Source: a virus
Lineage: Duplodnaviria > Heunggongvirae > Uroviricota > Caudoviricetes
DNA: 38,370 nucleotides
IMG/VR virus record: IMGVR_UViG_2645727901_000003
Coordinates: 1-38,370 of that record
Reading direction: 5' to 3' (one strand)
Part shown: positions 1 through 31,290 of the stretch, piece after piece
How the letters are laid out: each line of letters opens with the position of its first letter
How positions within the stretch are numbered: position 1 is the stretch's first letter
Notes under the pieces: model-generated
The model's database searches: none
What the model was told of the DNA's origin: nothing
What the model saw: only the letters and a program-made list of their open reading frames with translations
Made by a program: the position numbers and the translations under genes

Positions 1-113
1 CGGAAGTCGCTGTCGTTCTCAAAATCGGTGGAGCTGCATGACAAAGTCATCGGGCATTATCTGAACATAAAACACTATCAATAAGTTGGAGTCATTACCC
101 ATTCTGCGTTTCC

Positions 114-908
114 TCACCAAATTCGCTTCGGGCTTGGTGTATTCTCTCCAGCTAACGCTTTTTCATCAGCGGCTATCTGTTGTGATTCTTTATCTGCCTG
201 AGCCTGTGCCAGTGTTGCTGCAGCGTTTTGCTGGGCTACCAGGAGCGAGCGGATTTGCAGCAGCTGGTTCGTTTGAGCACTTGCAAGCTGGTTAGCGGCC
301 TGAATAGCTTCCATTTGCCCTTGTGCGCCGGTTGCCTGAGTTTGCAAATCTGCCAGGTTATCAGCATCGCTTTGCAGTGTTTCTTGCTGTTCATCAAGAG
401 CCTTAAAAACGGCGTCATTGGCCTTTTTACGCGCCTCAGAGCTGTTCTGTTCTGCTTTACGCAGTGCGCTGATTTCATCTGCAGTACATTCAACATTACT
501 GTTAAAGCACGGTGATGAGCGGTAGTAATTCACGTCCTGATAACGTTTCAGATATGAATCAAGACTCCCGGCCTGATTTTTGTAGTAATTAAGAGTGTCC
601 TGCGCCTGCAACAATTTGTTGATGGTTGAATTGGCCTGATCCCAGATATAGGCCGCAGGTGCGACGGTATTTTTGAGCATGTTTTCATACTGCTGCAGCT
701 GCGTCTGGTACTGCTGGATCTGTTTAGTCACAGCCTGAACGTTGTTAACTGCGCTGATTGTGGTCTGAACCACATTAGTGCCATCAATAACGGGAATTCC
801 GGCCTTAACCGGTAATGCCATGACGGACGCCACGAAAGGAACTATTAAAGCTTTTTTAGCGGCTAAAATCCCTCTTTGTAATGAAACCACTCGGAACATT
901 AAATTCAT
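114..908 (-). CDS. trbJ: P-type conjugative transfer protein TrbJ-like (VirB5 family)
   Basis: 264 aa; N-terminal signal-like segment then AGIPVIDGTN, YQDVNYYRSSPC and ANQLASAQTNQLLQIRSLLVAQQNA motifs recalled from RP4 TrbJ; ATG at 908 with GAGGTGA Shine-Dalgarno. Confidence 0.7.
   Translation of the reverse strand: MNLMFRVVSLQRGILAAKKALIVPFVASVMALPVKAGIPVIDGTNVVQTTISAVNNVQAVTKQIQQYQTQLQQYENMLKNTVAPAAYIWDQANSTINKLLQAQDTLNYYKNQAGSLDSYLKRYQDVNYYRSSPCFNSNVECTADEISALRKAEQNSSEARKKANDAVFKALDEQQETLQSDADNLADLQTQATGAQGQMEAIQAANQLASAQTNQLLQIRSLLVAQQNAAATLAQAQADKESQQIAADEKALAGENTPSPKRIW
855..867. promoter_or_regulatory. KorB operator (OB)-like palindrome TTTAGCGGCTAAA
   Basis: Exact match to the IncP-1 OB consensus TTTAGC(G/C)GCTAAA; lies in the 5' end of the trbJ-like ORF. 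Confidence 0.55.
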
Positions 909-989
909 TTGCTCACCTCTTTTTCATCAGTTCAGTAATATTTAACACACTGTCTTTTAACAGACGCAGGTATATAGGAAACCACACAT

Positions 990-1343
990 TTATTTATCCA
1001 AGATTTTATCCATAATGTTCCTTAGTTCTTGCCGAGTTGATTCTATTTTCGCAAGCAAGGTTCTTATCAGGGTGGGTGAAAAATCAACTGTTCGAGGATC
1101 ATTTGCGAGCCATAATTTAAGTAATCCGCCAAGTCTTCCAAGATCAGCGTTTACTCGGCTAAGTTCATTAACCTGTTTTATATCTACGATAGAATCAACC
1201 TGATAACCCATTGCAACTCTACGAACAAAACAGGCAACACTTAATCCAGATGCTTCTGCATTTTCTTGGATGAGAATTTTTTCTTCGGGTAAACAATAAA
1301 CTTTTATTGGCGTACTATTTTTTCTAGTCTGAGTAACTTTCAT
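990..1343 (-). CDS. Putative mobilization/relaxosome accessory protein (MobC-like)
   Basis: 117 aa from ATG at 1343 with GGAGAG Shine-Dalgarno (ORF track extends to 1430); LxRxxxxLxxLxxxL pattern reminiscent of MobC; sits beside the oriT/oriV-like intergenic region. Confidence 0.4.
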   Translation of the reverse strand: MKVTQTRKNSTPIKVYCLPEEKILIQENAEASGLSVACFVRRVAMGYQVDSIVDIKQVNELSRVNADLGRLGGLLKLWLANDPRTVDFSPTLIRTLLAKIESTRQELRNIMDKILDK

Positions 1344-1734
1344 ATAGCTCTCCATACAGGCGGTAGCCTGGCAGAGCAGGACGCCCTTGAGCCGCGATGC
1401 GGCGAATAGGGAGTGGTAAAGTTGGAACACCGTAGCGGTGGGCCTACTTTACATGTCCTGCCCTCCTGTTGCCGTAGTATATCTGTGCACATCAATGTGT
1501 ATTTCAGTGTACAGGATGTGTTTTCTTAGCGTATTAATATAGGATTACTCGGGTAAAGATCTGCAGCAAATGTGTTTCTTGCAAGGAAACTATATTTCTC
1601 CCTTTTGAAAATGACCTTTAGTAGTTATAAATGGGCGTCCACCAACTGTATTTATGTTTCGATATATTGTAAGAAATATTTTATTTTCTCATGCACTTTT
1701 TTACTTACATTGTCAAAGCATGTGCATTGCAGAT

Positions 1735-1747
1735 TTTAGCGGCTAAA
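1735..1747. promoter_or_regulatory. KorB operator (OB)-like palindrome TTTAGCGGCTAAA
   Basis: Exact OB consensus, next to an AT-rich stretch (about 1600..1730) in the origin-like intergenic region. Confidence 0.6.
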
Positions 1748-1960
1748 ATCTTCCTCCCTATGCCTAAAGCTAGGGGCGTACCTCATATGTCATAAAACCT
1801 ACCTCAAGTGTCAATATACCAAACGAGTAAGTAATCTCTTCTTCTGGCGTACAACCATCGGCCTTTGGCCGATTCTAGATTTGAAAGCGCCTGCTCAGGC
1901 AGGTGATTTCAAAGACTGTAGATCCTGAACGATCCTGTAAATACTGCTGAATAGTAAAAA

Positions 1961-2044
1961 ATCGGGCCGCTGTAGCACGCTACCGGGCCGCTATAACACG
2001 CTATCGGGCCGTTGTGACACAATATCGGGCCGTTGTGACACGTT
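1961..2044. repeat. Four tandem 21-bp iterons (putative oriV)
   Basis: ATCGGGCCGCTGTAGCACGCT / ACCGGGCCGCTATAACACGCT / ATCGGGCCGTTGTGACACAAT / ATCGGGCCGTTGTGACACGTT in head-to-tail array; followed by TTATCCTAG (DnaA-box-like). Confidence 0.75.
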
Positions 2045-2795
2045 TTATCCTAGAACCGTTCAAATCAATTCCAATTTCCAGCAATTGCACGGAATCTTCT
2101 TTCAATCTCCGACGATAGTTACGTAAAGTCATATTACTCGTTCCTTCACCGCATACTGCTAATATCAACGTATCCATATACCACCCTCCTAAAGGATTAT
2201 TACTATGGGTTAAGACATGACGAGCGACTGCCTGGCTAATACCATGTTGTAGCCGAGCTATGGGGCCAGGATGATAATAAAATGGCAAATCTTTTTTGAG
2301 TAACATCGCTAATGCAACACCCAGACGGACACGCCATAAACGGCGTTCTCCCCCAGTCAAAGGATCTGGACGCGTCATAGGTGATGGCACTACATGATCG
2401 ATCAGTCCCCCTATTATACAGTCGCCGCTTTTCTCCAGCTCTGGCGTTATAATTTCAACTGTTGCGACGCGCAGATCTAAAAGCAATTTCTGTATACGAC
2501 CATAACTGTATTGTGCATCGGATAGCGTTCGGCGTACTTTCGCTGGATCTACTAATAATTCGATTCCACCATCAGAAATTTCACGACGTTGCTCGGCAAC
2601 ATATAATATTGTCTCTACGATATCGGCATGACGCTGTCCGAGCCGTCCGGTAACACGACAACGACCAAAACTAGTCTCCATCCATTGTCCCTTCACCTCC
2701 TTAGGACGCTGGCTTGGCTGGTACAGAATTACTCGGGCTTGCCAAGCTGTACTTGTGGGTGCCACTTTATTACCAGTTGTCATTGTCAGCGCCAC
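2001..2795 (-). CDS. Putative iteron-binding replication initiator (IncQ RepC-like)
   Basis: 264 aa; C-terminal segment GGWYMDTLILAVCGEGTSNMTLRNYRRRL resembles recalled RSF1010 RepC; iterons directly at its 3' end; overlaps helicase gene end. Confidence 0.45.
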   Translation of the reverse strand: MALTMTTGNKVAPTSTAWQARVILYQPSQRPKEVKGQWMETSFGRCRVTGRLGQRHADIVETILYVAEQRREISDGGIELLVDPAKVRRTLSDAQYSYGRIQKLLLDLRVATVEIITPELEKSGDCIIGGLIDHVVPSPMTRPDPLTGGERRLWRVRLGVALAMLLKKDLPFYYHPGPIARLQHGISQAVARHVLTHSNNPLGGWYMDTLILAVCGEGTSNMTLRNYRRRLKEDSVQLLEIGIDLNGSRIKRVTTARYCVTTAR

Positions 2796-3627
2796 TCCAG
2801 GTAGATGTTCTTTCTTTAGTAAGCTTTTTATTATTCTTCGAGCTGAGCGCCGTTATTTTTAATACTCCCCCCTCATGTCTCTGTAACCAACGATCTGGCG
2901 CACGTTCTCCATAATTTACTTTATTTATTCCAAATCTAACAAATTGACCTCGAACATCATCAGAAATACCATACGTCTTCGCTTCCAAGGCGGTCATGCC
3001 CGCCAGATAAGATTGCCACCGTATATTATCAACCAGGACGCTACTACCCCTGCTTGCCTGCTGTATATCACCAACCCCCATCGTGGCAGCGCCTTTGTTT
3101 GAATGGTGTAGAAATATAATCGAACATCCAGTATCAGCAGCAATACCTTCTAGCTTTCCAATGACTTTGGACATTGCTGCGCTATTATTCTCATCCTCCT
3201 GGTGGAAACGGCGAAGAGTATCCAAAATTATTAAACGTCTACCTTTTGAAACTTCATTGATCAAGTTGCTCCAATCCGGCAAGAAAATATTTGGACACTT
3301 CCCTACCAAAGGTTCGACCAGTAGCTTATCAGCTACAATCTGCTGCTGACGTGCTGTTAGATATTTTCCCAACGCATATAAACGATGGTGAACGATGGTT
3401 TCAGAGTCCTCCACAGGTAAATATGCCACCAACCCAGTCGGATATTCACCAAAGTTTAAAAGATCTACACCACAAGTAATCTGCACAGCCAATTGTAATG
3501 CCAGCATTGACTTTCCAGCGCCTCCCGGAGAAACAATCGCTCCGATAGTACCAATAGCCAAATTAGGCAAGACGTAATCAATTGGTTGTGGCTTAGCTTC
3601 AAATGCTTCCATTATGTTCAATGACAT
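2770..3627 (-). CDS. RepA-like replicative helicase (RecA-fold ATPase)
   Basis: 285 aa; Walker A SPGGAGKS, Walker B-like LIILD; ATG at 3627. Confidence 0.65.
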   Translation of the reverse strand: MSLNIMEAFEAKPQPIDYVLPNLAIGTIGAIVSPGGAGKSMLALQLAVQITCGVDLLNFGEYPTGLVAYLPVEDSETIVHHRLYALGKYLTARQQQIVADKLLVEPLVGKCPNIFLPDWSNLINEVSKGRRLIILDTLRRFHQEDENNSAAMSKVIGKLEGIAADTGCSIIFLHHSNKGAATMGVGDIQQASRGSSVLVDNIRWQSYLAGMTALEAKTYGISDDVRGQFVRFGINKVNYGERAPDRWLQRHEGGVLKITALSSKNNKKLTKERTSTWSGADNDNW

Positions 3628-3632
3628 TGCTG

Positions 3633-3863
3633 TTACCTACCTAAAACAACACCGGGTCTGGCCGCTTTAAACATTGCTGATTTACGATCCGCAATCCACT
3701 GTTCCACTTCGGATAACTGCCATGCAACATTTCGACTAGTAAGTGCTATACGGCGAGGAAACTCGCCTCGCTGTTCAAGGTTATAAATAGTGCGGGCTGA
3801 CAATGGGATCATTTCCAGAAGTGTTTTTCTGTTAATGAGCGTGCTATGTGCCTTTGTTTGCAT
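3633..3863 (-). CDS. alpA: AlpA-family HTH regulator (prophage CP4-57-type / excisionase-like)
   Basis: LSARTIYNLEQRGEFPRRIAL...WQLSEVEQWIADR matches AlpA HTH pattern; ATG at 3863 with perfect AGGAGG (ORF track start at 3884 is a TTG codon). Confidence 0.7.
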   Translation of the reverse strand: MQTKAHSTLINRKTLLEMIPLSARTIYNLEQRGEFPRRIALTSRNVAWQLSEVEQWIADRKSAMFKAARPGVVLGR

Positions 3864-3940
3864 CTGCCTTCCTCCTGTTTCCAATCAGGCCTATACAATG
3901 CCAAGCATTACCACTTGCTAAAACCTATTCATTGGCTAAA

Positions 3941-4912
3941 ATGGTTGACATGAAAATTACTATCTGGGAAGGCTGTGACCTCACAGTTGCAGCTGCAATT
4001 AAATTATTTGTAGAGCGTAGTTATCCGTACTCCATATTTTCACGGAGGTATCCAATACTGCGTCTCATACAGGAAGTTATTGATCCAGCAGTAGCTGCTT
4101 ATGTAAATTCCCTGCCACCAAGTCATAAAGACTACATTTCTGGAGTAAATCTAGGATTTAGTGATGTACTTAAAAAAGTGGGCTTAAACGTCGTAGTACA
4201 GGCACAAAGACTTCTTTTGCGTAATTTCGTTCTGACTTTAGATCAACAAACTTCTCTTGATAAATGCTTTACCGCTACGATTGAGTCTCTTATTGAATTA
4301 GTCAGTGAGTGCGCATCCAAGCGGCCGAAGAAATCCTCTCCTGCAAAAGGAGTAACTATAAATTCACAGCGTAAGCTCGGTTATTGCGAGTTCTGCGGTA
4401 ATCTAACCGAATTTTCCAAGTTGATCAGTGAGATATCAGAATTTGTTGCTAACGATAATGAGTTCCCCGTTCATGAAAAACAGGTCCTTAGTCATCGATA
4501 TTGTTCTGACCATAGGCCCAAACTCACCAATGGTCTATGGAATCCCAAATACAGACAAGGAAAGCGGTCTCTCGAACAGTTCAATAAAGAATTAATAAGG
4601 CTTAGACGGCAATGCGCTAAACCGCATAAAGCTAACGCAAACACAGGGGATATATTGATTGATACCTATTTTCATGAGTGGATGCAGGGTCAAACTTTAA
4701 CCCCAGCAGATCTAGATAAACTTAGGAATATTGCCAGACGAATGGTTGACTCCAAATTCACTGATACTAAGAAAAAAATAATCATATTAAAACACCAAGG
4801 TTTTAACCAGTTTGAAACCGCACAGGTTTTAGAAAAAAATCACTACACAACTATGACAAAGCAGGCTGTGTCCAAGGCCTTAGCGTCTGTGAGGAAAGAA
4901 TTTTATATTTAA
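3941..4912 (+). CDS. Hypothetical cargo protein with Cys-containing central region and C-terminal HTH-like segment
   Basis: AT-rich ORF; GYCEFCGN...YCSDH; C-terminal FETAQVLEKNHYTTMTKQAVSKALASVRK helix-turn-helix-like; start uncertain (ATG 3941 or GTG 3848). Confidence 0.4.
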   Translation: MVDMKITIWEGCDLTVAAAIKLFVERSYPYSIFSRRYPILRLIQEVIDPAVAAYVNSLPPSHKDYISGVNLGFSDVLKKVGLNVVVQAQRLLLRNFVLTLDQQTSLDKCFTATIESLIELVSECASKRPKKSSPAKGVTINSQRKLGYCEFCGNLTEFSKLISEISEFVANDNEFPVHEKQVLSHRYCSDHRPKLTNGLWNPKYRQGKRSLEQFNKELIRLRRQCAKPHKANANTGDILIDTYFHEWMQGQTLTPADLDKLRNIARRMVDSKFTDTKKKIIILKHQGFNQFETAQVLEKNHYTTMTKQAVSKALASVRKEFYI

Positions 4913-5337
4913 AATAGTATATCCACGAGCTATTATGGTGGCAGTTTAAGTCTTAATATCATCCACTTTATTGAATTATAACCAGCCACTTACGAGGGTT
5001 TTTCGCGATTACCCTGCTTCAAATTGATGATTTTGAAAATACAGTATTATAGTTTATTGTTTGTAGCGCAGCTGTAAGCGTTATGCAAAACGGATCACAG
5101 TGATACTACCTCACCAGTAAATCACTGAAGCCGATCTGTAATGACATAGAACGAATTGGTTTTATGGTTATGCAATGGCTCATCCCCTTACTTGTCCCTG
5201 ACCATAAAAAGCATTCGCTTTCCTGAAAGCAAGTCTAAGCCAAGGGGCGTTTACAGTTGTCTTCTCTTGGCTCATTAGGTACTGGCTTAATTATTAGAAT
5301 CATGTCGGTGGCATTTAAGTCCAAATATGCCCAAACT

Positions 5338-5350
5338 TTTAGCAGCTAAA
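5338..5350. promoter_or_regulatory. KorB operator-like palindrome, centre variant TTTAGCAGCTAAA
   Basis: Perfect 13-bp palindrome differing from OB consensus only at the central base. Confidence 0.45.
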
Positions 5351-5489
5351 ATTCGTCTTCTCATGTAGGGTCAAGAAGCTTATGACTTAACCTATTGATT
5401 ATGTGAATTACCTTGTGAGTATTACTCGTAGGATGGAATCTTCCAAAACTCTGACAATTCACTCTGAATGCATGGTAACAAAGAACAGT

Positions 5490-6119
5490 TTAAACCATGG
5501 TCTGTTCAGCGTTAAATTTCTCAAGATAGACTTCCATTTCGCGAGTCCACCTAGGGGTAGGTACCGAGGTGATCATTAGCCAAGGAAACCACCATACAAG
5601 CATGAAGAGTAACATAAGCGGTGCGATCATTTCGGCCGAAGAATGAGAAACTATATACATAATGAATAAGATTAGTAGAACTGTGTTTACAATCTGACCT
5701 ACCAGAAAAAGACGCCAGCGAAAACAATGCCATTTCCTGTTGAACACAATCCGTCCATCCCGTTCTTCGAGCCAGTTACGCCACGGCTTGAGATAACCAG
5801 CCCGCAACCCATAACGATCACACATTATTACAGCCAAATCCTGCAGCCGATAATTATACAAGCCTGTGAGCCGATAAAGGCTGCGCTGACGAAGCTCACG
5901 CTTTGCCAGACGGACCGCATTTTTATTCAAATATGGCTGTGTCAGCATTTGCTCTAGCCGGCGCTTCCTAAGATTGAGTAGTCCACGAAATACACTTCCA
6001 GATTCAGCATTAATTACTCTGTGACGAACTACACCGAGTGCAATATAGATACACAGCAATAGCCAGCCGGTCTTAGGGTATTGATTCATCCATTGTATAA
6101 TTACAGACAACTCAGGCAC
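5490..6119 (-). CDS. Hypothetical membrane protein (cargo)
   Basis: 209 aa; hydrophobic N-terminal segment and two C-terminal TM-like segments flanking a basic soluble region; AT-rich; GTG start with AAAGGA Shine-Dalgarno (alternative ATG at 6089). Confidence 0.45.
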   Translation of the reverse strand: MPELSVIIQWMNQYPKTGWLLLCIYIALGVVRHRVINAESGSVFRGLLNLRKRRLEQMLTQPYLNKNAVRLAKRELRQRSLYRLTGLYNYRLQDLAVIMCDRYGLRAGYLKPWRNWLEERDGRIVFNRKWHCFRWRLFLVGQIVNTVLLILFIMYIVSHSSAEMIAPLMLLFMLVWWFPWLMITSVPTPRWTREMEVYLEKFNAEQTMV

Positions 6120-6173
6120 TTTTATTTTTCCTTTTTATGCAATCCAGATAAAACCAGTAAAGATTCAGTAAAT

Positions 6174-6186
6174 TTTAGCGGCTAAA
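6174..6186. promoter_or_regulatory. KorB operator (OB)-like palindrome TTTAGCGGCTAAA
   Basis: Exact OB consensus about 55 bp upstream of the membrane-protein gene start. Confidence 0.6.
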
Positions 6187-6242
6187 ATTGCTCTCCTGGC
6201 GTAGATAAAAGAAGTATATCCACTTAAATCACTGATTATTAA

Positions 6243-7433
6243 CTACTTACTAGTCCATTCATCAATCATATTCGCCCAATCTTGTAGCATCTCGGCCCTC
6301 TGCTCACGATATTCAGCCTTGTTATAAACAGCTCGTACCCCCTTTTGTTCATGGGCAAGGCACTTCTCAATCCAGTCAGTATTGTACCCGGCCTCATGTA
6401 GCAAGGTGCTGGCAGTACGCCGTAAGTCATGGGGACCAAACTTAGGTAACAAGTCCCCTTCTTTCTGAGCCAGACGATACGTCAGTGTCAAAACCCGGTT
6501 TAAAGTAGCGCTACTCATTGGCGCATCGGAATCGTACCGCGAAGGAAGGATAAAATCAGAGCTACCGGCAAAGGTTTTGAGAGCAATCATAATATCCATT
6601 GCCTGTCTGGAAAGAAAAACCAAATGTGGATTACGTCGTTTCATCCTCTCCTTTGGTATCGTCCATAATGCCTCACTAAAATTGATCTCGTTCCAGGTTG
6701 CGTTAGTAAGCTCACTTTTACGTACCATCGTTAACAGCAAAAGTTTAACCGCTGCTCTGATTGATGGCGTCGTTCCTACCCGTTCCATGTACCGATACAT
6801 CAGACCAATTTCAACTGGCGTCAATGCCCTGTCACGAGGCTCAAATTTCGCTATGCTTGCAGGCCGTACCAGATCAGCGGGATTCTCAACCTTCTGACCG
6901 CGCTCAATAGCCCAGCGATAGACTTGCAATACAATCTCTCTGGCGTGCACAGCTGTCGCCGGTGCCCCTCTCTCGACAATGTTATCGGTTAATGCGCGTA
7001 AGTCTTCATGTGTAATCTCGGTCAATTTCTGCTGCGCAAATTTTGACTTCAACTCCCTTTGATATACCGAACGCCGCATATCACGCGTCGATTCAGCCAT
7101 TTGATAACCGCGTAACCATTTCTCAGCCCATGCACCAAAAGTCTCCGCATCTTTGATACGAGCTTTATCTCTAGCTTTTTCCCTCGCTGGCGATCTTCCA
7201 CTGGCAACCATTTTTTTAGCTTCATGGAGCCGTTCACGCGCTTCTGCAAGCGTGATCCCTCCAACACCATAGCGGCCAAAAGTAACGGTCTCCTGTCTTC
7301 CGTTTATTGAATAGTTATAACGAAATGAAATAGTTCCAGCCGGAGTGACCGCAACATACAGACCATCACGGTCATTAACTTTATAGAGTTTCTCCTTCGG
7401 CTTAAGGTGACGCAGCCTGGTGTCAGTCAACAT
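6243..7433 (-). CDS. int: Tyrosine site-specific integrase (P4-type phage integrase family)
   Basis: 396 aa; N-terminal arm-binding-type domain (LYKVNDRDGLYVAVTPAGTISFRY), catalytic box HDLRRTASTLL and LAHEQKGVRAVYNKAEY. Confidence 0.85.
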   Translation of the reverse strand: MLTDTRLRHLKPKEKLYKVNDRDGLYVAVTPAGTISFRYNYSINGRQETVTFGRYGVGGITLAEARERLHEAKKMVASGRSPAREKARDKARIKDAETFGAWAEKWLRGYQMAESTRDMRRSVYQRELKSKFAQQKLTEITHEDLRALTDNIVERGAPATAVHAREIVLQVYRWAIERGQKVENPADLVRPASIAKFEPRDRALTPVEIGLMYRYMERVGTTPSIRAAVKLLLLTMVRKSELTNATWNEINFSEALWTIPKERMKRRNPHLVFLSRQAMDIMIALKTFAGSSDFILPSRYDSDAPMSSATLNRVLTLTYRLAQKEGDLLPKFGPHDLRRTASTLLHEAGYNTDWIEKCLAHEQKGVRAVYNKAEYREQRAEMLQDWANMIDEWTSK

Positions 7434-7553
7434 GTTTTATTGTTTTCCTTTATCAAAAATACCATGTTGTAAAAAATTCAGAAAACTTGTTTAACTCTCT
7501 GTTTTTAATTGAGTTATAAAAAATAAATACCATAACTCAACCGAAATTTATCA

Positions 7554-7863
7554 CATGGTACTTTTTCAAACCTGAATTCGAAACCAGAGAGTACCATCAA
7601 AAATTCCATTGAAAAAACCGTGCTTCCCGTTGCTAACAGCTGCCAGAAAGTGCCAGATACAAAAACAAAAAAGCCCGCAGTTACGCGGGCTTAGAGGTAC
7701 TTTACTGCTTTTACGTGCAGGCTGTTGCCAGACGTTAAATCATTCCCACTCAATTATTTACGGACAACATAAGTAATTGACTGACAACAACTTTTAAAGA
7801 AACAAAATTTCCAATACCGTTTTATATACCGTCGCCGGAAATCAGTACCATGAAAAATGCCAT
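7554..7863. repeat. GTACCAT-containing direct and inverted repeats (candidate integrase arm sites / att region)
   Basis: AGTACCATCAAAAATTCCAT (7590..7609) vs AGTACCATGAAAAATGCCAT (7844..7863), 17/20 identical; inverted copy CATGGTACTTTTT (7554..7566). Confidence 0.4.
7663..7695 (-). terminator. Intrinsic terminator closing the prophage lysis operon
   Basis: GCCCGC-AGTTAC-GCGGGC hairpin followed on the minus strand by UUUUUUGUUUUUG. Confidence 0.7.
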
Positions 7864-7864
7864 G

Positions 7865-8347
7865 TCACCTGGTCAGCGAATCGTACTGCTTTTCACAGAC
7901 TCTTCCTGCTTCGGCTGCCCGATCAGCGTACTCTGCCAGTTGTCGGTTTCGCTCGAGAGATTTGCTGAGCAAGTCGGCAAGCAAAACACCGGTGTCTGCG
8001 GCTGACGGCCCAGCGCCGACAATGGCGTTATACTGCCTGAGCTGCTCACGGATGGCAACGAGCTGTTGCTGCAACCTGCCAGCGCGAGCGGCAGCATCAA
8101 GAGCATCATTGCGCGCCTGGTCGATCCTCTGCTGCGCTTTACGTTCATTGATTGCTTTCTCCTGTTCGTCGTGCTGACGAGCTTTATCATCTTCGGTTTT
8201 ACGGTCTGTCTTTGCCTGCGCATACCCGGCGTCATACTGTCGGCTGCCATGAACATTCCAGGCAACAACGCCGACGATCACCAGAGCAGCAAGCATCGCC
8301 ACGATAAGCAACTGTTTCCAGTACGCTTTCATGAATGCTCTGATCAT
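7865..8347 (-). CDS. Rz-like i-spanin
   Basis: 160 aa; N-terminal TM anchor then charged coiled-coil region; ATGA overlap with endolysin stop. Confidence 0.65.
   Translation of the reverse strand: MIRAFMKAYWKQLLIVAMLAALVIVGVVAWNVHGSRQYDAGYAQAKTDRKTEDDKARQHDEQEKAINERKAQQRIDQARNDALDAAARAGRLQQQLVAIREQLRQYNAIVGAGPSAADTGVLLADLLSKSLERNRQLAEYADRAAEAGRVCEKQYDSLTR
7873..8109 (-). CDS. Rz1-like o-spanin lipoprotein embedded in Rz (+1 frame)
   Basis: Internal start giving MMLLMLPLALAGC lipobox; 78 aa. Confidence 0.5.
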   Translation of the reverse strand: MMLLMLPLALAGCSNSSLPSVSSSGSITPLSALGRQPQTPVFCLPTCSANLSSETDNWQSTLIGQPKQEESVKSSTIR

Positions 8348-17319: not shown

Positions 17320-19025
17320 TACAGCCCCCGGTTAATCAGACAGGCGGCGAAAGCGCGGTACGCTTTTCCGATAGAGTCGTCACTGGCCTCTGCACGGATC
17401 GCTGCAATATTCTCCCGCATCGACGCAGCCAGGTCAGGATTGTCAGTGGCAATGTCGTTCAGCAGCGCATCACTGATATTAAATTCATTTTCCAGATCAG
17501 CGGTAGCCGCTGTTATTTCATGGTCAACATTCTGCGTATCCTGCCACACACGATCCGCACTTTCACTGACGGCGCGGGAACCTTCATCAGCCTGCCGCAC
17601 CGGATTTTGTATGCGCTGGATAGCACGCTCGCGTAGAGCTGGTTTGTGCAGATCATAGAATGGCTCAATATCAGGCGAGCGCCCTTCCATCATGTGCGCC
17701 AGTGAGCCTCGATACGCCTGCTGGTTAACGCTCCAGTCAGCCTCACGAACCGCTGCCGACGCAGTGCGCACTGCGCCAGCCACAGGCGACATCTGCATGC
17801 TTTCGCGAATCTGTTGCGCACGCTGGGCTATCAACGGCGCCAAGTCGTCAGGTATCTCTTTGCGGGACAGTTGCGCCTCTCTGCCTTTTGCCTGCTCTGC
17901 TGCAGCATTACGTTCAATCTGTTGCGTAATTTCCTGGTTACGCGCGGTGATGGCGTCTTTCTCAACCTCAATATCTCGCTGCGCCCTGGCTCGTGCTGCT
18001 TTGAATTTCATGCGTTGCGCCTGGTAATCGGTCGTGCGCTGGGCCAGAGTTGCGTCAAGTGCCTCACTTTGCCTGTTGTTGGTCACCAACTCAGTTCGCA
18101 GATCCGCAACGTTGTCAATGCTCCCTGTCTGTAGCTCCTGCTGCCTTACCATATATTCCGGCACAACATCATCATAGGCGCGGCTGTAGGCATACGCTTC
18201 CGCATCCCGCGCGATTGCCGCTGACAGATCGGCGTTGGTGCCGGACTCAGGAATATTTACGCCTGCCGGTATATTGTCAGGCGTAAACACCGGTGTTGGC
18301 TGCGCATCAGCGACAGGCTGAACGTCTTGCGAGGCAGCAGGATTTTCAACAGTACCAGCCCTGCGGGAGCGTACCACATCCGATATCAGCCCGCCGCCAG
18401 CGTGCATCAACCCGCCAGCGATGGTGTTAAAGAAGGTGCTCTCCAGCGCGTTGCCATATGTGAAGTCATCTCCTTCTGCCGCTGCTGCCTGTGCCGTCAG
18501 AGGTACGGTGGCAATAGCCTGAGCAGCGCCAAGCCGAGTACCAGTGGAAAGACGCTCACCGAAGCGCCCAAGCATAGTTGCCGCCTTTGCTTCTCCACCG
18601 AACGGGACCAGCGCCAAAGCCACGTTACCGGGATCAGCCATTGATCCTGCAAGGTTTGCGGCAAAGTTAAGCGGAGTGGCAACCCATCCAGACGGGGCAG
18701 ACATGGCGATCTGCTGCTTCGCCAGAGTTTCTCTGCGCTCGCTGATCACATGGTCGAGGAATGTTTGTGTAACACCGCCGTCAGGCACATTGATACTTTT
18801 AACGCCGTACTCTTTAAGGCGTGTTTCCGCGTCAGATTTACTGACGATGGTCGAATTTGGGTCATTTGCCAGTTGGTCGGCTTGAGAAAACCGATAACCT
18901 GACACAACAGGCCCCTCTTTGAATCCCTCTTTCAGGGAGGAAAGCAGCGATTCACCAAGCCCTGATGGGGCATTCGACAGCGGCTGGTTTATTCCCTGCC
19001 CTGGGTCATCTGTATAAATCGGCAT
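17319..19025 (-). CDS. Internal virion protein
   Basis: 568 aa, Ala/Gln-rich, translationally coupled to neighbours. Confidence 0.45.
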   Translation of the reverse strand: MPIYTDDPGQGINQPLSNAPSGLGESLLSSLKEGFKEGPVVSGYRFSQADQLANDPNSTIVSKSDAETRLKEYGVKSINVPDGGVTQTFLDHVISERRETLAKQQIAMSAPSGWVATPLNFAANLAGSMADPGNVALALVPFGGEAKAATMLGRFGERLSTGTRLGAAQAIATVPLTAQAAAAEGDDFTYGNALESTFFNTIAGGLMHAGGGLISDVVRSRRAGTVENPAASQDVQPVADAQPTPVFTPDNIPAGVNIPESGTNADLSAAIARDAEAYAYSRAYDDVVPEYMVRQQELQTGSIDNVADLRTELVTNNRQSEALDATLAQRTTDYQAQRMKFKAARARAQRDIEVEKDAITARNQEITQQIERNAAAEQAKGREAQLSRKEIPDDLAPLIAQRAQQIRESMQMSPVAGAVRTASAAVREADWSVNQQAYRGSLAHMMEGRSPDIEPFYDLHKPALRERAIQRIQNPVRQADEGSRAVSESADRVWQDTQNVDHEITAATADLENEFNISDALLNDIATDNPDLAASMRENIAAIRAEASDDSIGKAYRAFAACLINRGL

Positions 19026-19026
19026 A

Positions 19027-21648
19027 TTATCGTCCCGTCTGCTGGCCGTTCTGGATAATGTTGATCAGATTTTCACGCTGACTTTCTACCGTGTAATTCT
19101 TCGACTGGCCCGGAGTGTACTTAACCGGCGTCTGCACTAATTTGGTCAGGCTGTTCCAAGTTGTACGGTTGCCAGCGCCAAGTTTCGCGAGGTCAGCAAA
19201 CGAAACTGTAATCGGCTGCCCCTGCGCATTGTTGATCAACAGACCATTCATCATCAGCGTAAGCCCTGTTTCGTCGCTGTTGGTTACCCACTGTGCGTTA
19301 TCACGAATGCGGGAAATACTTTGCTCTCGGTTAACCTCATCCGGCAGACGGGCGTCACCGATTAGCGGCATGATCTGATCTGCTGACAGATTCTTCAGGT
19401 ACACGTTAGCGCCGTCATTAACGTCACGAATATCATGCCCGGCGTTGTTAGGCATACGCCAGGTGCCATTGGTCTGATACTGCTCACCGAGAACGTCCTG
19501 ATATGCCTGTTTTGCTGCATCGCCAGGCGACATGCCGCGCTGCATATAGGTGTAGGTCAGGCGTTTACCCTGATCGTTGAAGTTGTTCCACACGGCAGAC
19601 CCGCCAGGCTGTACAACCATCGTCCCGGCAAAATCTTTTGCCTGGTCATTCCAAGATGAATCAGCGCTGTCGGCGTCTGTCTTCTCAAAGCTGCCGCGCA
19701 GGTCAGAAGTTTTAACACTGCGGTTTTGCCAGAGCGCGTTGGCGGCCCGAGGATTATTGGTCGCCATGATGACTTGAAGCGCTGGATATGCGCTTTTCTG
19801 CACCTGCTGCATAACCTGATCGGAGTATTTTCCGAACGACTGCGCCACCGACTGAATGGCGGTTACGCTTGATTCTTTATTGTTATCGATCTGAGAAATG
19901 AGGTTGTTAACCATGGCGTCAGGAAGTACCTTCTTACTATTGATACCAAGGCGGTCTTTCTCTGCTTGCAGACGGGAAACCAGATATTCACCTGATGCCT
20001 GGTTGTTCTGATATTGCTCAAAGGCGTTTTTCACCACCGGCGAGTTGGCTTGTAGCCACGTACCCGGGTCGGACTCGCGCGCTTTAATTACCTGATTCAG
20101 TTTGGCCTGCGCAGTTGCGTACAAGCTCTGCTTAAATTTAAAGTCAGGGTCATCTTCCTGCGGCACCATAGACTGCACCGCAGCGATACCCTGCTGCGCA
20201 GACCCCTGAACAATGGATTGATATACCGGTTGCAGCGTCATCGCCTGCTGATATTGCTGGAATGACTCGCGCATCTGAATGCGCTCCGCCGGGCTTGCCT
20301 GCAACGGCATGACCGCCAGCCACTCACGTTCCGAGATCGGGTTAACTTTCTGTCCTGACTCTAATTTAGCAAGGTCATCCTGCATGCGGCTTTGCAATGA
20401 CACGCGACCAGCTGCGGCTTGCATATCGTACATGCCTGCCACTTTGCTCATCATCGCTGATTTGTTCTGCGGACTCATCGCATCCCAGAAAGGCTGATTG
20501 ATGAGGTTTTCCATCGTAGCAGTTCCTGGTATCGCCGGAGCGCTGCCGGTTACTTTCGCGACATAGTTGCGAGTTTCATCATAAGGGATTGCCGCAGCGA
20601 ATTGCTCATTGCTCACCGCACCAGTACGCGGGTCGCCAAACTGCTTTATCCATCCATCAACCGCACCTGGCCCAGCGTTATACGCCGCCACCGCCAGTAC
20701 AGGATTATTGTCATACTTCTTCATCTGCGCGCCGAAGTAGGCTTGACCAAGCTTCGCATTGTAGCGCGTATCGTTCAGCCACTTATCACGATCCCACGGT
20801 ACGCCAGCCAGTCGTGCTGCTTCCGGCCCCGTATCCTCCATCACCTGCGCCACCCCTACTGCACCTTTCGGAGATACCAGTGGTAAACCGTCTTTGCCAT
20901 ACTGATTACCTCCGGATTCCAGCCAGATCATCGCGGAAAAAAGCTGCGATTCGCTCGGAGTGTCGGTAACTTCGATCTTACCTTCCGGCCCCATGATTTG
21001 CTGATAGGTTGGTGTATACCATGCTTCGCTGGCGCGGTTGGCGGCCTGCTCACGCCACTGCACGAAATTAGACTCTATTTCCTCATCGCTCTGTCCGTGG
21101 GCTTTCCCATAAGCGATAATAGAATTACGAGCATTCATCAATGCAGGAACAAACAGACCAGGAGAAATCGCCTGCTGTGCCAGCGAACGTAACGTTCCCT
21201 CCTGCATACCTGCTTCGTACTGACGCACCTGCCCAACTTCATGGCGAACAGCGGTCGTCTTGAACTGGATTCTCTGCTGCTGTGCCTGCTGAAGAAACGC
21301 ATTTCGCGCCTGCTCATCCGGCAGGCTTGCTGCAATGCTCTGCGCCTGAGAATCAAACTGCTGCACGTACTCCTGCCCCTTGCCGATCGCGTTCTTCCCT
21401 TGCAGATTCATGAATCCTGAATCAGGGTTATTTAGCAGATCGTTGCCAACCGCATTCAGTTGAAGAGTTGCCTCTTGGGTAAGTGCCACATTTGCCCGTT
21501 GCTTGGCCTCTCCAAATACGTTGATGGCTTTGCTGCCAGCGTCGACGATAGCATCACCAATGTTTGGCTGATCTAATGCCTGAAAACCAGGAGACTGAAA
21601 CCCCCTGCTTTCGACCTGACGACCGGTGACTGTTGGTACTGTTGGCAT
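19027..21648 (-). CDS. Internal virion protein with lytic transglycosylase (SLT) domain
   Basis: 873 aa; MIWLESGGNQ catalytic-Glu motif and AAYNAGPGAV. Confidence 0.7.
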   Translation of the reverse strand: MPTVPTVTGRQVESRGFQSPGFQALDQPNIGDAIVDAGSKAINVFGEAKQRANVALTQEATLQLNAVGNDLLNNPDSGFMNLQGKNAIGKGQEYVQQFDSQAQSIAASLPDEQARNAFLQQAQQQRIQFKTTAVRHEVGQVRQYEAGMQEGTLRSLAQQAISPGLFVPALMNARNSIIAYGKAHGQSDEEIESNFVQWREQAANRASEAWYTPTYQQIMGPEGKIEVTDTPSESQLFSAMIWLESGGNQYGKDGLPLVSPKGAVGVAQVMEDTGPEAARLAGVPWDRDKWLNDTRYNAKLGQAYFGAQMKKYDNNPVLAVAAYNAGPGAVDGWIKQFGDPRTGAVSNEQFAAAIPYDETRNYVAKVTGSAPAIPGTATMENLINQPFWDAMSPQNKSAMMSKVAGMYDMQAAAGRVSLQSRMQDDLAKLESGQKVNPISEREWLAVMPLQASPAERIQMRESFQQYQQAMTLQPVYQSIVQGSAQQGIAAVQSMVPQEDDPDFKFKQSLYATAQAKLNQVIKARESDPGTWLQANSPVVKNAFEQYQNNQASGEYLVSRLQAEKDRLGINSKKVLPDAMVNNLISQIDNNKESSVTAIQSVAQSFGKYSDQVMQQVQKSAYPALQVIMATNNPRAANALWQNRSVKTSDLRGSFEKTDADSADSSWNDQAKDFAGTMVVQPGGSAVWNNFNDQGKRLTYTYMQRGMSPGDAAKQAYQDVLGEQYQTNGTWRMPNNAGHDIRDVNDGANVYLKNLSADQIMPLIGDARLPDEVNREQSISRIRDNAQWVTNSDETGLTLMMNGLLINNAQGQPITVSFADLAKLGAGNRTTWNSLTKLVQTPVKYTPGQSKNYTVESQRENLINIIQNGQQTGR

Positions 21649-21660
21649 TTCTATGTCTCC

Positions 21661-22203
21661 TTATCGACCGGTTGGTGTACCGATAGCGACACTAATTGGT
21701 GCTGGGGTGCTTTGTGTGAACGGGTTCCATTCACCACCACCAATCCTATAAGCACCATACGCATTAAGCGGAGCAGTCAGCAGCGTAGTAAATGCCCCCA
21801 TATTCCCCTGCTTGCGTGCTGAGTTGGCCTGAGCTTTGTAGTTTTCAGCCTGAACCTGAAAGCCATACGCTTCACGCTGAGCGTTATTCACCGTAGTCAG
21901 TGCATCCAGCGCGCCAAACTGCGCTGTATCGCCGAAGATATCCAGCGCTCCACCAGTGGATAGATCTGCACCTGTAGCGCCCATGGTTGCCGCCTGGGTG
22001 CCAGCGGCCTGACGATTACGGCGACGAACCTCATCAGCCTGAGCGTTGCCACGGTTGATAGAATCCTGTGCCTGTGCCGTGGCCACTTCTGCATTCTGCT
22101 CTGCAACAGCAGATGAATACTTACCTTGCTGGTACTGGTTGTATGCTGAAACGCCACTTAAAGCGACACTGGCGCCAGCAAGAGCGATAGCCGGGCTGCA
22201 CAT
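21661..22203 (-). CDS. Virion structural protein (Ala/Gly-rich)
   Basis: 180 aa, low complexity, late operon. Confidence 0.4.
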   Translation of the reverse strand: MCSPAIALAGASVALSGVSAYNQYQQGKYSSAVAEQNAEVATAQAQDSINRGNAQADEVRRRNRQAAGTQAATMGATGADLSTGGALDIFGDTAQFGALDALTTVNNAQREAYGFQVQAENYKAQANSARKQGNMGAFTTLLTAPLNAYGAYRIGGGEWNPFTQSTPAPISVAIGTPTGR

Positions 22204-22667
22204 TATTTTCTCTCCATGTGGAAACGGTGAAACGGTAGGTTATTAATGCCGTATGGCTGAGGCTCATCAATGGTGAATCCCAGCCAGTGAAGCCAGATGC
22301 GTGCAGTGTGGTTACGCGCATCAACATAATTTTCAAGATACGGATAAACGGTCAGCATTGCATTGACCACTTTTCCGCAGCGGCGAAGGAAAGTACGCTG
22401 GTATTTTTCCAGCGCGTCAGTGCCCACCAGCCACGGAATACCGCTGCCGCCGATCATCGATGCTGGTGCTACGCCAAAGACAGTCACCACTTCACCGTTA
22501 ATCAATCCGGCACAGCAAAATGTTGACGTGCGCAGACCAGTTTCCAGCACGCAGCGCGGACTCCATCCATTGGTTGCCAGAAACTCGTCAATATCTGCCT
22601 GGCGGACATGCGGAAGAATTGATTCGATATGCTCTGCGGTGGCCGGTACGATATGAGCGTTAATCAT
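22203..22667 (-). CDS. Virion-associated protein, function unknown
   Basis: 154 aa, coupled to flanking structural genes. Confidence 0.35.
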   Translation of the reverse strand: MINAHIVPATAEHIESILPHVRQADIDEFLATNGWSPRCVLETGLRTSTFCCAGLINGEVVTVFGVAPASMIGGSGIPWLVGTDALEKYQRTFLRRCGKVVNAMLTVYPYLENYVDARNHTARIWLHWLGFTIDEPQPYGINNLPFHRFHMERK

Positions 22668-25144
22668 CAGAAGCCTCCGACGGTAAGGCGAGGAAGAACA
22701 GCCAGCACTGACAGAGGCAAAGGATCAAGTTGGCGGACCTTAACGCGTCCGTTTTTATCCCAGTTGCTGTCGAGTTTTACTTCCACCTTCCCAGTAGCGT
22801 CATCAACAGGATCGTCGTAGAACTCAAATTCCCGCTGCGGATATTCATACCAAGTTCCGCCCGGAGTTGTTGCCCATATGCCCCGACTTGCGTTGACCAC
22901 CATCGTTACAGTAGGAATGACCTGCTTTTTATCCAGCAGTGTTTCCTGCCCGTTGATATTGATGTCCAGCGTTTCGAATTCAGCGGTGATAGGCAGACCG
23001 ATGTGCACAACTGCGCCTGGTGATTCCAGCGTGACAGAGCCACCAGTTACTGTTTTCTGTGGTTCAACGCTGGCATCTGACAGGATGTTTACCGTTTGCC
23101 CTTCGAGGTGAGAAAGGCCGCCGAACGTCTGTCGGGCCATCTGCCAGTTAGTTGTTGGCACGTTGCGAAGTATCTCCGGAACGTTGCGATTGAATCGGAC
23201 GGTAACTGCGGTATTGCTTGTTACCGAGATGATATCGCCGCGCAGCTCTTTAGCCACCGGTTCGTTGGTGTCTGGATCCGTCTCTGAGTACGGGAACTGG
23301 ATCTGAGCACCTACGTCAGTGTTAACGAAATACGCTCCACCACTCACAGTAACCGGATAATCAACCTTATAACTCCAGTCTCCGGTGCCACCGCTGATAG
23401 TCATAGTGCGGGATGATGTGTTGCGCCCGTCGTAGCTCAGACCACAGTCGACAAAGAATGCGTCCTCATCGTTGGTGAACAGGCGACTGGAAAGGCGCTC
23501 GATGTAACGCACAGTCTGCCCATTAATAGTACGGTTAACCACGAAGTAAACAGCATCCTCGCTGCCTTCACTGATGGAGCAGGTGCTTTCGTACTTTCCG
23601 GTGCTGGATTGCGGTGCCCAGGCAAACACCTGCTGATCACGCAGATAGGTCAACACCAGCAACTTGCCGTCATCACGAATGCAGAACGCGCTGCTGTACG
23701 GCACGATGCAGAATGACCAGTCAACAATGCTGTGTTTCTGGAAAAGGTGGTTTGCCAGTATGGTCAGGTCCGTACCCTGGTACCCGTCAACATCGAAGGA
23801 ATATGCCAGATCTCGCACCACGCTGCCTTTTTCCTGAATGAACAACGCGATGTTTGCCACGGCGATAGGTGGCACGTTACTGGATCCGTTATTTCCCTGA
23901 GAGCTGAACGAGAACGCTGACGGCGTGAGAACCTTATTCTGGTCCCCAGATATCGTATATTCCCCGCCTGAAGTCAGAGCGACCAGGTTACCAACGTCAA
24001 TAAGATGACGGATCTCATTCACCTGCCGCCCGGCGTAGGTGTATATAATGCGGTCATCATCCTGAATCGGGTTGTTCTTGCCGAAGTCCTTATAATCGCC
24101 GGTACGGCTTGCCCAGATTGTTTGCGGGTACGCGGTAGACGCGGCAAAGTACAGGCGCTGCTGGTAGTAAACAACAGTGCTCGGATAGCCGTTGACGCTG
24201 TTCCACGCGTATTTCGCCCACTTATAGCTGGCGTTAGTGGACCCAACCACCTGAGAAGGAATGAATGAAACCACATCGGCAGTTGCTGTCAGTCCATCAC
24301 CAGCCACCGCTGTGATTCTGGAAATGCCAAAACCGCTGTGCAGGTACTCCCACTGGATCCCGGTATCATCTGAACCGGTACCGCCCCAGCCATCCCACGA
24401 CATTCCCTCGGTATGCGAAGGGCGAAGTGTTCCGGTCTTGCCAGCAGTATTGGCGCGGTAGTAGTTGCTGTCTGCACGACGAACATCATTGATTGCCGTG
24501 GTCTTGCTGGTTTCCCATACCGGTACGGAATCAATAGCAGGCTGCTCGAGATAGAACAGTTTTCCGACCTGCTCAGCACCGAAGATGGCAGAACTTGCCG
24601 TCAACGTAATGGTTCCGGTGCTGGCGCTGGAGTATACCTTCACTGTCTCGTCAACGTTAATATCTTCGAACGGTCCGTTTTTTGTGGTGACGTCGACGAT
24701 CTGCCAGTTGTCGTGCGCGTAGCGGCGCAGTTCTTTCGGCGGGTATGCAGGATGCACCAGCGTCAGAACGTCAGCGCTCTGCGTGAATTTTATGCGGAAA
24801 AGGTCGGTATCAGCATACGGCATTGCCAGCTCATAAATCACGTTGCTGGTCGTCAGAACATAAGCACCGTCTTTAATGACGCGCATATAGTTATGACCGA
24901 ACTCAAGCGCGTAGGTCTGGACTGTCGAGAACTGAAACGGGATTAACCGGCACTTGCGATCAGGATATTTAGCTGGGCCAACAAAGCGCGTACCGGGTCT
25001 GTTCTCGACACCGCCATACTGACGAACAATGAAGTTATCACACTTGCGAAGCGCCACCTGATACTTTGACATATCAATGCGGCCGTACAGTGACGGACCA
25101 ATTTCACCACCGGCAAAGCTCGGTTGAATCCAGCTAAAAGCCAT
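22667..25144 (-). CDS. Large tail protein (tail tube/nozzle-like)
   Basis: 825 aa, position between adaptor-like and internal proteins. Confidence 0.4.
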   Translation of the reverse strand: MAFSWIQPSFAGGEIGPSLYGRIDMSKYQVALRKCDNFIVRQYGGVENRPGTRFVGPAKYPDRKCRLIPFQFSTVQTYALEFGHNYMRVIKDGAYVLTTSNVIYELAMPYADTDLFRIKFTQSADVLTLVHPAYPPKELRRYAHDNWQIVDVTTKNGPFEDINVDETVKVYSSASTGTITLTASSAIFGAEQVGKLFYLEQPAIDSVPVWETSKTTAINDVRRADSNYYRANTAGKTGTLRPSHTEGMSWDGWGGTGSDDTGIQWEYLHSGFGISRITAVAGDGLTATADVVSFIPSQVVGSTNASYKWAKYAWNSVNGYPSTVVYYQQRLYFAASTAYPQTIWASRTGDYKDFGKNNPIQDDDRIIYTYAGRQVNEIRHLIDVGNLVALTSGGEYTISGDQNKVLTPSAFSFSSQGNNGSSNVPPIAVANIALFIQEKGSVVRDLAYSFDVDGYQGTDLTILANHLFQKHSIVDWSFCIVPYSSAFCIRDDGKLLVLTYLRDQQVFAWAPQSSTGKYESTCSISEGSEDAVYFVVNRTINGQTVRYIERLSSRLFTNDEDAFFVDCGLSYDGRNTSSRTMTISGGTGDWSYKVDYPVTVSGGAYFVNTDVGAQIQFPYSETDPDTNEPVAKELRGDIISVTSNTAVTVRFNRNVPEILRNVPTTNWQMARQTFGGLSHLEGQTVNILSDASVEPQKTVTGGSVTLESPGAVVHIGLPITAEFETLDININGQETLLDKKQVIPTVTMVVNASRGIWATTPGGTWYEYPQREFEFYDDPVDDATGKVEVKLDSNWDKNGRVKVRQLDPLPLSVLAVLPRLTVGGF

Positions 25145-25749
25145 TATGACAACCTCGCTGCTGTGAACTCATCTACCGGCGGTTGTGGCTCCTGGGATTC
25201 ATTCTGGCTATGTGAGCCAGCACTCAGGATCACGCGGTTGTACATCGTCAGTGCGTTGTTACCGAGATCTGCGCTACCGGTCAGCGCCATATTGATAGCA
25301 GCAGCCAGACGCCAGGAAAGCGCCTCCATAAAAATGGCGTCATACATATTGACGTCAGTAACCCGCGCCACGTATTTCAACCACGCTTTCGGCTGATCGG
25401 TGTAAATGAGCTTACCTGTCAGATCCTCATTGGAACCGACAACATATTCAATGCGCTGCGCAGCCGTAGGATTGCGTATGCCTGTCGGCATGATCTCGGT
25501 TATACGCACGCAATCAGATGGGTACTGATAAGCGTATTGCCAGTCAGGCGGCGGATTATTGGTATCGGCCAGCGCCACGCGCTTGGTAGCAAAGTTCCAG
25601 TCGAAATCAGCCAGAGCAGCATCGCGGCAAGCGTCAAAGTGCAGTGAGCACTGTCCGGCCTCTTTACTGGCTTCATTCAGACTGTTAATGCTGCGGCTGT
25701 TGCCGATATTGCTCAGCGCGCGGTTGCAGATCTCGATAACGGAGGCCAT
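25144..25749 (-). CDS. Tail adaptor / tubular protein A-like
   Basis: 201 aa, synteny only. Confidence 0.35.
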   Translation of the reverse strand: MASVIEICNRALSNIGNSRSINSLNEASKEAGQCSLHFDACRDAALADFDWNFATKRVALADTNNPPPDWQYAYQYPSDCVRITEIMPTGIRNPTAAQRIEYVVGSNEDLTGKLIYTDQPKAWLKYVARVTDVNMYDAIFMEALSWRLAAAINMALTGSADLGNNALTMYNRVILSAGSHSQNESQEPQPPVDEFTAARLS

Positions 25750-26087: not shown

Positions 26088-26123
26088 GAAGGGGGCCGAA
26101 GCCCCCTGTTTGATTAGCGAGGC

Positions 26124-26468: not shown

Positions 26469-26478
26469 CGATATCCCC

Positions 26479-26919: not shown

Positions 26920-26970
26920 TTTCTTTCTCCATTCATGGGCCGGTTAAGGCCCATTAGTTAATGACAGGCG

Positions 26971-27957: not shown

Positions 27958-27974
27958 GGTTATATCCTCTCTTA

Positions 27975-28682: not shown

Positions 28683-28693
28683 TGGTTATCTCC

Positions 28694-30980: not shown

Positions 30981-30994
30981 CTCTGCCTACTCCG

Positions 30995-31201: not shown

Positions 31202-31290
31202 AGCAATAGCTCCGTACGCAATTAAATTATTACCAATTTAACCACATATGATTTATTTAGCGTAGGATATTGACACATATAACATCAGAT

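Follow-up and report, generated by a model that had tools for sequence, protein, structure and literature searches.

The 3' end of guaA serves as an attachment site for more than one kind of mobile element. The att sites of the element GIsul2 contain GAGTGGGA at this end of guaA, and the GIsul2 integrase (Int) was shown to excise and integrate (PMC9376610). Phages phiV10, epsilon15 and vB_EcoP_ZX5 have attgagtgggaatgatt as both attP and attB, also at the guaA 3' end (PMC9782041). The PIME1 subfamily of Pseudomonadota Integrative Mobilizable Elements (PIMEs), described in a preprint of January 2026 and with a luxR gene transcribed divergently from alpA as its hallmark, is induced to excise and replicate by the IncP plasmids pB10 and pKJK5 (bioRxiv 10.64898/2026.01.12.698999). 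Here we analyse a 38,370-bp stretch of DNA (IMG/VR record IMGVR_UViG_2645727901_000003, below the window), which is the entire draft contig JHTE01000044.1 of a short-read assembly (GCA_001266335.1). Positions 100–7754 of the window are the int-proximal half of a PIME1-type integrative mobilizable element (below the island). From 7755 on, the window runs from the lysis end into a Uetakevirus (phiV10/epsilon15-type) prophage, the immunity and int end of which is located off-contig.

We are confident that this composite consists of two independent mobile elements inserted in tandem at one guaA att site. The boundaries of the units, the hybrid att site between them, the separate occurrence of both units and the affiliation of the integrase were observed directly. 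Both the architecture and the tandem are ordinary, as two known kinds of elements occupy a known shared attachment site; what is added here is the precise reconstruction of the att sites and a set of conserved KorB operators without korB, which makes helper sensing testable. The original prediction had noticed conjugation, mobilization and replication genes with KorB operators beside a podovirus-like prophage, and all of these are in place (Pfam, NCBIfam and motif matches). Its conjugation module turned out to be a fragment: trbJ, traJ and the origin of transfer (oriT) are present, but a relaxase and a complete type IV secretion system are not.

The hybrid att site at guaA

Similarity to other copies of the island covers window positions 100–7754 with 99.7% identity and stops at 7754 in 31 of 31 complete E. 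coli chromosomes, where guaA follows. Phage similarity starts at 7734–7738, both in related prophages and in free phage genomes. The overlap of the two, GTTAAATCATTCCCACTCAAT, occurs once in the window and is the reverse complement of the last guaA codons (..I-E-W-E-stop). The hybrid att core (7734..7754) equals the attP core published for Uetakevirus and contains GAGTGGGA, the core of GIsul2, on the minus strand. At 7737–7754 it reads AAATCATTCCCACTCAAT, 18 bp that copy the 3' end of guaA (..IEWE stop, minus strand). The real boundary between the units is this core and not position 7864, where it had been placed originally. To the left of the core lies the int-proximal att arm of the island (7434..7733), which carries (A/G)TACCAT repeats and a terminator hairpin at 7671–7692 and is identical to the arm at the island/guaA junction in islands L001 and L006. 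To the right, the lysis-side attP arm of the phage (7755..7864) has ATACCGT(C) repeats and is colinear with the attP of phiV10 and with attL of the prophage in E2348/69. The Uetakevirus-type features of this side include the attP core ATTGAGTGGGAATGATT, the lysis arm and matching structural genes; the int side is off-contig and adjoins guaA in relatives.

For att comparison, every core copy was extracted with its flanking context. In the empty site of K-12 the yfgI side is followed by AAATCATTCCCACTCAAT and guaA. Where the island is present alone, attL consists of the yfgI side, AAATCATTCCCACTCgAT (..CTCgAT) and the far arm of the island, while attR consists of the island int arm, the core and guaA. 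Where the phage is alone (E2348/69), the yfgI side, the core and the lysis arm make up attL, and the int arm, the core and guaA make up attR; in the attP of phiV10 the core is flanked by the int arm and the lysis arm. The window junction joins the island int arm, the core and the phage lysis arm, which is exactly the hybrid site expected of two elements in tandem at one attB. The lack of a tRNA or tmRNA gene near the integrase, noted in the original prediction, extends to the whole window according to ARAGORN; a tRNA or tmRNA was accordingly rejected as attB in favour of guaA. This lack is not anomalous, because attB is the 3' end of protein-coding guaA for both elements (PMC9376610; PMC9782041).

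The only integrase gene in the contig (6243..7433, minus strand) codes for a P4-type tyrosine recombinase of the GIsul2/PIME clade (Pfam Arm-DNA-bind_3, Phage_int_M and Phage_integrase). Its product is 87% identical over 395 aa (full length) to GIsul2 Int (the copy on plasmid R485), but shares only 53–54% identity with the Int proteins of phiV10 and the guaA prophage of E2348/69. Therefore, the integrase is that of the island, as the original prediction had favoured. It always accompanies the island and adjoins guaA where no phage is present. In the original prediction, unambiguous assignment of the integrase to one unit had been named as a ground for refutation; by this standard the earlier ambiguity over which unit owns the integrase, or whether both do, is settled in favour of the island.

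The int gene and attR of the prophage itself are inferred to lie off-contig, next to guaA, and several comparisons point to such a position. The order in phiV10 is holin – endolysin – Rz – attP – int, so in a prophage of this kind the lysis cassette and the phage's own int come to lie at opposite ends. In E2348/69 and in contig L084, a related prophage with int-attR-guaA retrieved by exact-protein look-up, a phage Int of 417–418 aa adjoins guaA. An IMG/VR contig identical to the window extends the prophage by 6.39 kb and stops before int; this extension is colinear with L084 up to ~4.7 kb from guaA.

The tandem could have arisen by either of two routes. The attB is the last ~18 bp of guaA, between yfgI and guaA. 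The island Int would recombine the island attP with this core, the island supplying a replacement guaA end. The phage attP, expected between the lysis cassette and the phage's own integrase gene, has the same core. The phage could then enter the guaA-proximal core (island attR), or the island could enter the yfgI-side attL of the prophage, with an identical product. As each element keeps both of its own arms, separate excision would still be expected.

The same hybrid junction recurs elsewhere. Search with a 36-nt pattern spanning the island arm, the core and the phage arm has found it in 13 other contigs, four from metagenomes and nine from IMG/VR. Compared to the window, their phage sides are 67–100% and their island sides 87–100% identical, so different phages have been paired with the island repeatedly. 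In three of the contigs (L023 and L028 from IMG/VR, L019 from a metagenome) the island side shares only ~94 nt (7661–7754) or nothing past the 36-nt pattern; these may be other island types or remnants beside Uetakevirus prophages. Tandem arrays in which elements with related integrases pile up head-to-tail at one core, giving rise to hybrid att sites, are also formed by SXT/R391 integrative and conjugative elements (ICEs) with mobilizable islands at prfC. Another case is that of CR2-sul2 units inserted in attR of a guaA island (cited in PMC9376610). Unlike in those arrays, the partners here are a conjugation-dependent island and a phage. The guaA end is a hotspot for both: an island dependent on conjugation and a temperate phage, their Int/AlpA modules being homologous, stack there repeatedly, and such stacking could permit cross-excision or recombination between the two element types. 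There is also a practical consequence: prophages called automatically take in island DNA, IMG/VR contigs including as much as 7 kb of it.

Other explanations were considered. The modules are adjacent, with only ~430 bp between the island int and the first phage gene, and no second integrase is visible in the contig, as would be expected of one composite (a phage-plasmid, a phage-ICE hybrid or a nested insertion) with a single att pair and a single integrase moving both parts. This is very improbable, given that each unit is also found by itself, with its own att pair and a precise end at the same core, that the junction coincides with a full att core and that the integrase is of the GIsul2/PIME clade, while phiV10-type phages have their own int across attP and the island is paired with different phages in other contigs. 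Among the options listed in the original prediction tandem integration is the one that stands; there is no support for nested integration, for a hybrid of phage and plasmid or for a single integrase that serves the two units. A chimeric join through the shared 18–21 bp guaA core might be suspected in a short-read draft assembly with contig ends in repeats. The probability of such an artefact is negligible: the junction is the same in 13 independent contigs of other assemblies, two of them 100% identical over several kb on both sides, and a 21-bp repeat is shorter than the k-mers typically used in assembly.

A functional relationship between the neighbours, with the island exploiting the Uetakevirus either in a satellite-like manner or by Int/AlpA cross-talk, so that phage induction would excise or co-transfer the island, is unlikely, although several features are in line with it. 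The island and phiV10 integrases are 53% identical and have very similar N-terminal arm-binding regions, the island AlpA is 39% identical to that of phiV10, the cores are identical and the arm motifs related (TACCAT in the island, TACCGT in the phage), the tandem recurs in 13 contigs, and occasional transduction was speculated upon for PIMEs (bioRxiv 10.64898/2026.01.12.698999). Such shared features of Int, AlpA, core and arms suggest a common ancestry of the recombination modules. Yet the arm motifs differ at one position, suggesting separate specificities, and the island and phage arm specificities are probably separate. The recurrence is sufficiently explained by the shared attB, and 31 complete E. 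coli genomes have the island but not the phage. It has oriT, TraJ and TrbJ, while no packaging or capsid-redirecting families were found among the in-contig island genes (Pfam, NCBIfam, PHROGs; two ORFs are unassigned and the cargo part is off-contig), and it is IncP plasmids that have been shown experimentally to induce PIME1 (bioRxiv 10.64898/2026.01.12.698999). A tandem of two independent elements thus remains our reading of the window, and three observations weigh against it. The left end of the contig is IS1 and its right end a repeated segment of the prophage, so that in this strain the attL of the island as well as guaA and the int and attR of the phage fall outside the contig. The tandem is absent from all complete E. 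coli genomes in the collection. The reverse order, phage then island, gave 0 matches in IMG/VR; this is a weak negative, and the lack of the reverse order could hint at a constraint.

KorB operators in the island

KorB is a ParB-family, CTP-dependent clamp of IncP-1 plasmids, and TTTAGCSGCTAAA is the sequence used as its operator (OB) in work on RK2 KorB (PMC11790492). On RP4, KorB binds 12 such 13-bp palindromes (Balzer 1992, as cited in PMC10954446). The island contains three exact copies of this IncP consensus and one site with a central mismatch. The first exact site, TTTAGCGGCTAAA (OB-1, 855..867), is located 41 nt inside the 5' end of trbJ, and the second (OB-2, 1735..1747) between oriT and the iterons. 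The central-base variant TTTAGCAGCTAAA (OB-3) occupies 5338..5350. The last exact site (OB-4, 6174..6186) lies 57 nt from the int stop codon, in agreement with the 57 bp originally reported (it ends 56–57 nt away). All four share the longer palindrome TTTTAGCNGCTAAAA. Under a base-composition model ~0.0003 exact operators would be expected by chance in the island part, and none was found in the 30.6 kb of phage DNA in the window.

No gene of the ParB/KorB or ParA families was found in the window, nor do intact islands or divergent PIME1s have one. Having operators but no korB gene, the islands would depend on plasmid-encoded KorB for the use of these sites. The operators are not peculiar to the window copy: ~65 kb of PIME and GIsul2 DNA contains 11 exact ones, compared to 0.0015 expected. 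Conservation was judged from six loci with LuxR 52–56% identical to that of the island; a Lonsdalea locus (L014) was rejected as evidence of conservation, its backbone still being 91–93% identical.

Two operator positions are conserved. The first is the 5' end of trbJ. The IncP plasmid p14EC001a (L033, NZ_CP024128.1; mcr-1), which has 13 operators along with ParB, ParA and KorA-like genes, also carries a site at 8468, 17 nt inside its trbJ, and the operator at the trbJ end was probably inherited with the trbJKL block. The second position is defined by luxR. In six out of six divergent PIME1s the palindrome TTTAGC-N-GCTAAA lies close to the luxR stop codon (-4 to +25 nt), the surrounding DNA being diverged. 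In the minimal Kerstersia element, where luxR and int are convergent, the operator sits between them and is 5 nt away from the int stop. The operators of the E. coli type bracket the cargo slot, one at +426 nt relative to the stop codon of luxR and the other 57 nt from that of int. A simple promoter scan has shown no enrichment over shuffled sequences and so gave no basis for interpreting the geometry of operators and promoters.

According to the PIME preprint, the mechanism of helper sensing is unknown and the reduced amplification of the helper unexplained (bioRxiv 10.64898/2026.01.12.698999). The preprint makes no mention of KorB, KorA, TrbA, ParB, operators or prophage tandems, and our search, which left subscription-journal papers outside, has found no published description linking KorB sites to guaA islands. 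We speculate, at about even odds, that PIME/GIsul2 islands are linked to their IncP helpers by the KorB operators, onto which KorB of an incoming plasmid would load. Such loading could reprogramme the expression of luxR, alpA and int, and so serve in helper sensing. Another possible role is partition of the island, once excised and replicating, by way of IncC-KorB. Finally, the island sites could titrate KorB of the helper, in which case the drop in helper amplification described in the preprint would be accounted for.

A precedent is provided by SGI1, which hijacks the parABS system of its IncC helper (PMC10954446). Like the island, SGI1 is an integrative mobilizable element that has sites for a ParB-family protein of the helper but not the protein. 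The two differ in the element family, in the helper (IncC for SGI1, IncP for the island) and in the sequence of the sites. As to the identity of the helpers, PIME1 of E. coli has an IncP-like oriT, yet was mobilised by neither pB10 nor pKJK5 (bioRxiv 10.64898/2026.01.12.698999). TraJ of the island is 60–69% identical to TraJ of 41–60 kb enterobacterial IncP plasmids, p14EC001a included, and only ~46% identical to the IncP-1beta types; the closest relatives of its oriT (81%) are in the 41–60 kb plasmids as well. These 41–60 kb plasmids, rather than pB10 or pKJK5, may be the mobilising helpers of E. coli PIME1. Exact operators without korB, conserved from E. coli to Vibrio, Aeromonas, Kerstersia and GIsul2, offer a testable handle on both helper sensing and the amplification defect.

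Gene content and relatives of the island

The first genes of the island are all transcribed from the minus strand. trbJ (114..908) codes for an IncP-type mating-pair formation protein (NCBIfam NF010452, 386.6 bits at a cutoff of 286) and traJ (990..1343) for an RP4-type oriT-binding relaxosome accessory protein with a ribbon-helix-helix domain (NF010451, 159 bits; Pfam NikA-like, 1.3e-22). The IncP-type oriT (1365..1480, minus strand) comprises an inverted repeat and the nick region (..GGGCCTACTTTACATGTCCTGCCC..). Its part at 1395–1480 is 81% identical, nick region included, to the traJ-traK oriT of p14EC001a, an IncP/MOBP/MPF_T plasmid. A traJ-II leader RNA motif at 1365–1463 on the minus strand (Rfam RF01760, 83.5 bits; gathering score 40) overlaps the inverted repeat of oriT. 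In E. coli M8 the island traJ (L006, 1091–1444) has an internal stop and is annotated as a pseudogene; decay is thus under way in some copies of the island.

The replication genes follow. Four 21-bp direct repeats (iterons, 1961..2044) downstream of the repA operon are a candidate oriV; the PIME preprint also puts oriV downstream of repA (bioRxiv 10.64898/2026.01.12.698999). The iterons overlap the 3' end of an open reading frame (ORF) on the minus strand (2001..2795), whose ~260-aa product is a candidate iteron-binding initiator, a role suggested only by its position, which is that of repC. No match to it was found in Pfam or NCBIfam, and it was rejected as an IncQ-type RepC, as it has no similarity to GIsul2 RepC; it may represent a novel initiator family. 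The repA gene (2770..3627, minus strand) codes for a RepA-family (IncQ-like) helicase (Pfam AAA_25, 2.7e-29; 'helicase RepA family protein' in RefSeq). It is followed by alpA (3633..3863, minus strand), coding for an AlpA-family regulator and probable recombination directionality factor (Pfam Phage_AlpA, 7.5e-13). The divergent gene on the plus strand (3941..4912) encodes a LuxR-family regulator of 323 aa, according to its RefSeq name and to homologs named as LuxR family. Judged by its family membership, the island would be quiescent until entry of an IncP plasmid and would then excise, replicate by means of repA and the iterons and be transferred via the IncP-like oriT and TraJ.

Between luxR and int lies a cargo slot, occupied here by a 209-aa ORF (5490..6119, minus strand) with no match in Pfam, NCBIfam or PHROG. 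Its product appears hydrophobic by eye, and in other PIME1s (L016, L018 and L087) the slot holds Gabija-like OLD-TOPRIM and UvrD or other defence genes. There are two copies of the 11-mer AGTATATCCAC, at 4916–4926 right after the luxR stop codon and at 6213–6223 between the last KorB operator and the int stop codon; it may be a marker of the cargo slot border or a regulator site.

To the left of position 100, intact islands continue into a 57-aa ORF and trbL, with variable defence-type cargo and HigA beyond trbL; such copies are ~17.6 kb or larger. In the window trbL is lost to IS1 and the contig end. Bases 1–99, originally treated as island DNA, belong to the end of an IS1 copy that lies at the edge of the contig, as follows from comparison with the intact island L001 and from massive multi-copy matches. 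We take these 99 bp to be the IS1 terminus on the grounds of a recognised terminal sequence and of an IS1A piece joined to it in one match (H1). The insertion point is exactly the start of the 57-aa ORF preceding trbL, just past trbJ. Interruption of the island by IS1 explains the assembly break at the left end. This copy is therefore broken by IS1 and possibly truncated.

The type element of PIME1, from E. coli RHB23-C07, resembles the island in having guaA-adjacent int, divergent alpA and luxR, repA, traJ, trbJ and an IncP-like oriT. The window copy differs in being cut by IS1 after trbJ and in being followed by a prophage instead of guaA. RHB23-C07 is absent among the matches listed. GIsul2, which carries trbJ-trbK-trbL, has in common with the island Int, the guaA 3'-end core GAGTGGGA, alpA, the RepA helicase, trbJ and the exact KorB operator at the trbJ 5' end. 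Unlike the island, it has an IncQ-type RepC, lacks luxR and traJ and carries ars and ISCR2-sul2 cargo. Near-identical islands are found in Shigella, Dickeya, Citrobacter, Yersinia and Phytobacter, while divergent PIME1s (LuxR 52–56% identical) adjoin guaA in Vibrio cholerae, Kerstersia, Zobellella, Aeromonas, Hafnia and Vreelandella.

The prophage

The lysis cassette (7865..9521, minus strand) encodes an Rz-like spanin of the DUF2514 family (7865–8347), a TIGR02594/CHAP endolysin and two holins. The rest of the prophage (9666..38370, minus strand) includes genes for the tailspike, Ant, virion proteins, capsid, portal and terminase, along with mosaic early genes. The segment at 36040–38370 is 100% identical to early-region genes (DUF551, Ea22-like, DUF2737) of a separate lambdoid prophage in E2348/69, and the right contig break is probably due to this repetition. 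Judged by these matches, the early region of the Uetakevirus-type prophage is a lambdoid mosaic.

The prophage shares with phiV10, epsilon15 and vB_EcoP_ZX5 the 17-bp attP core at the guaA 3' end and structural genes with 77–90% nucleotide identity over 40–49% of the compared region. In contrast to the known Uetakevirus members, it has another C-terminus of the tailspike, lambdoid early genes and an endolysin of the CHAP/TIGR02594 type instead of GH19. The endolysin gene is located at 8344–8823, and both phiV10 and the guaA prophage of E2348/69 have GH19 at the same position. The different endolysin type is due to a swap of the lysis module inside an otherwise conserved cassette.

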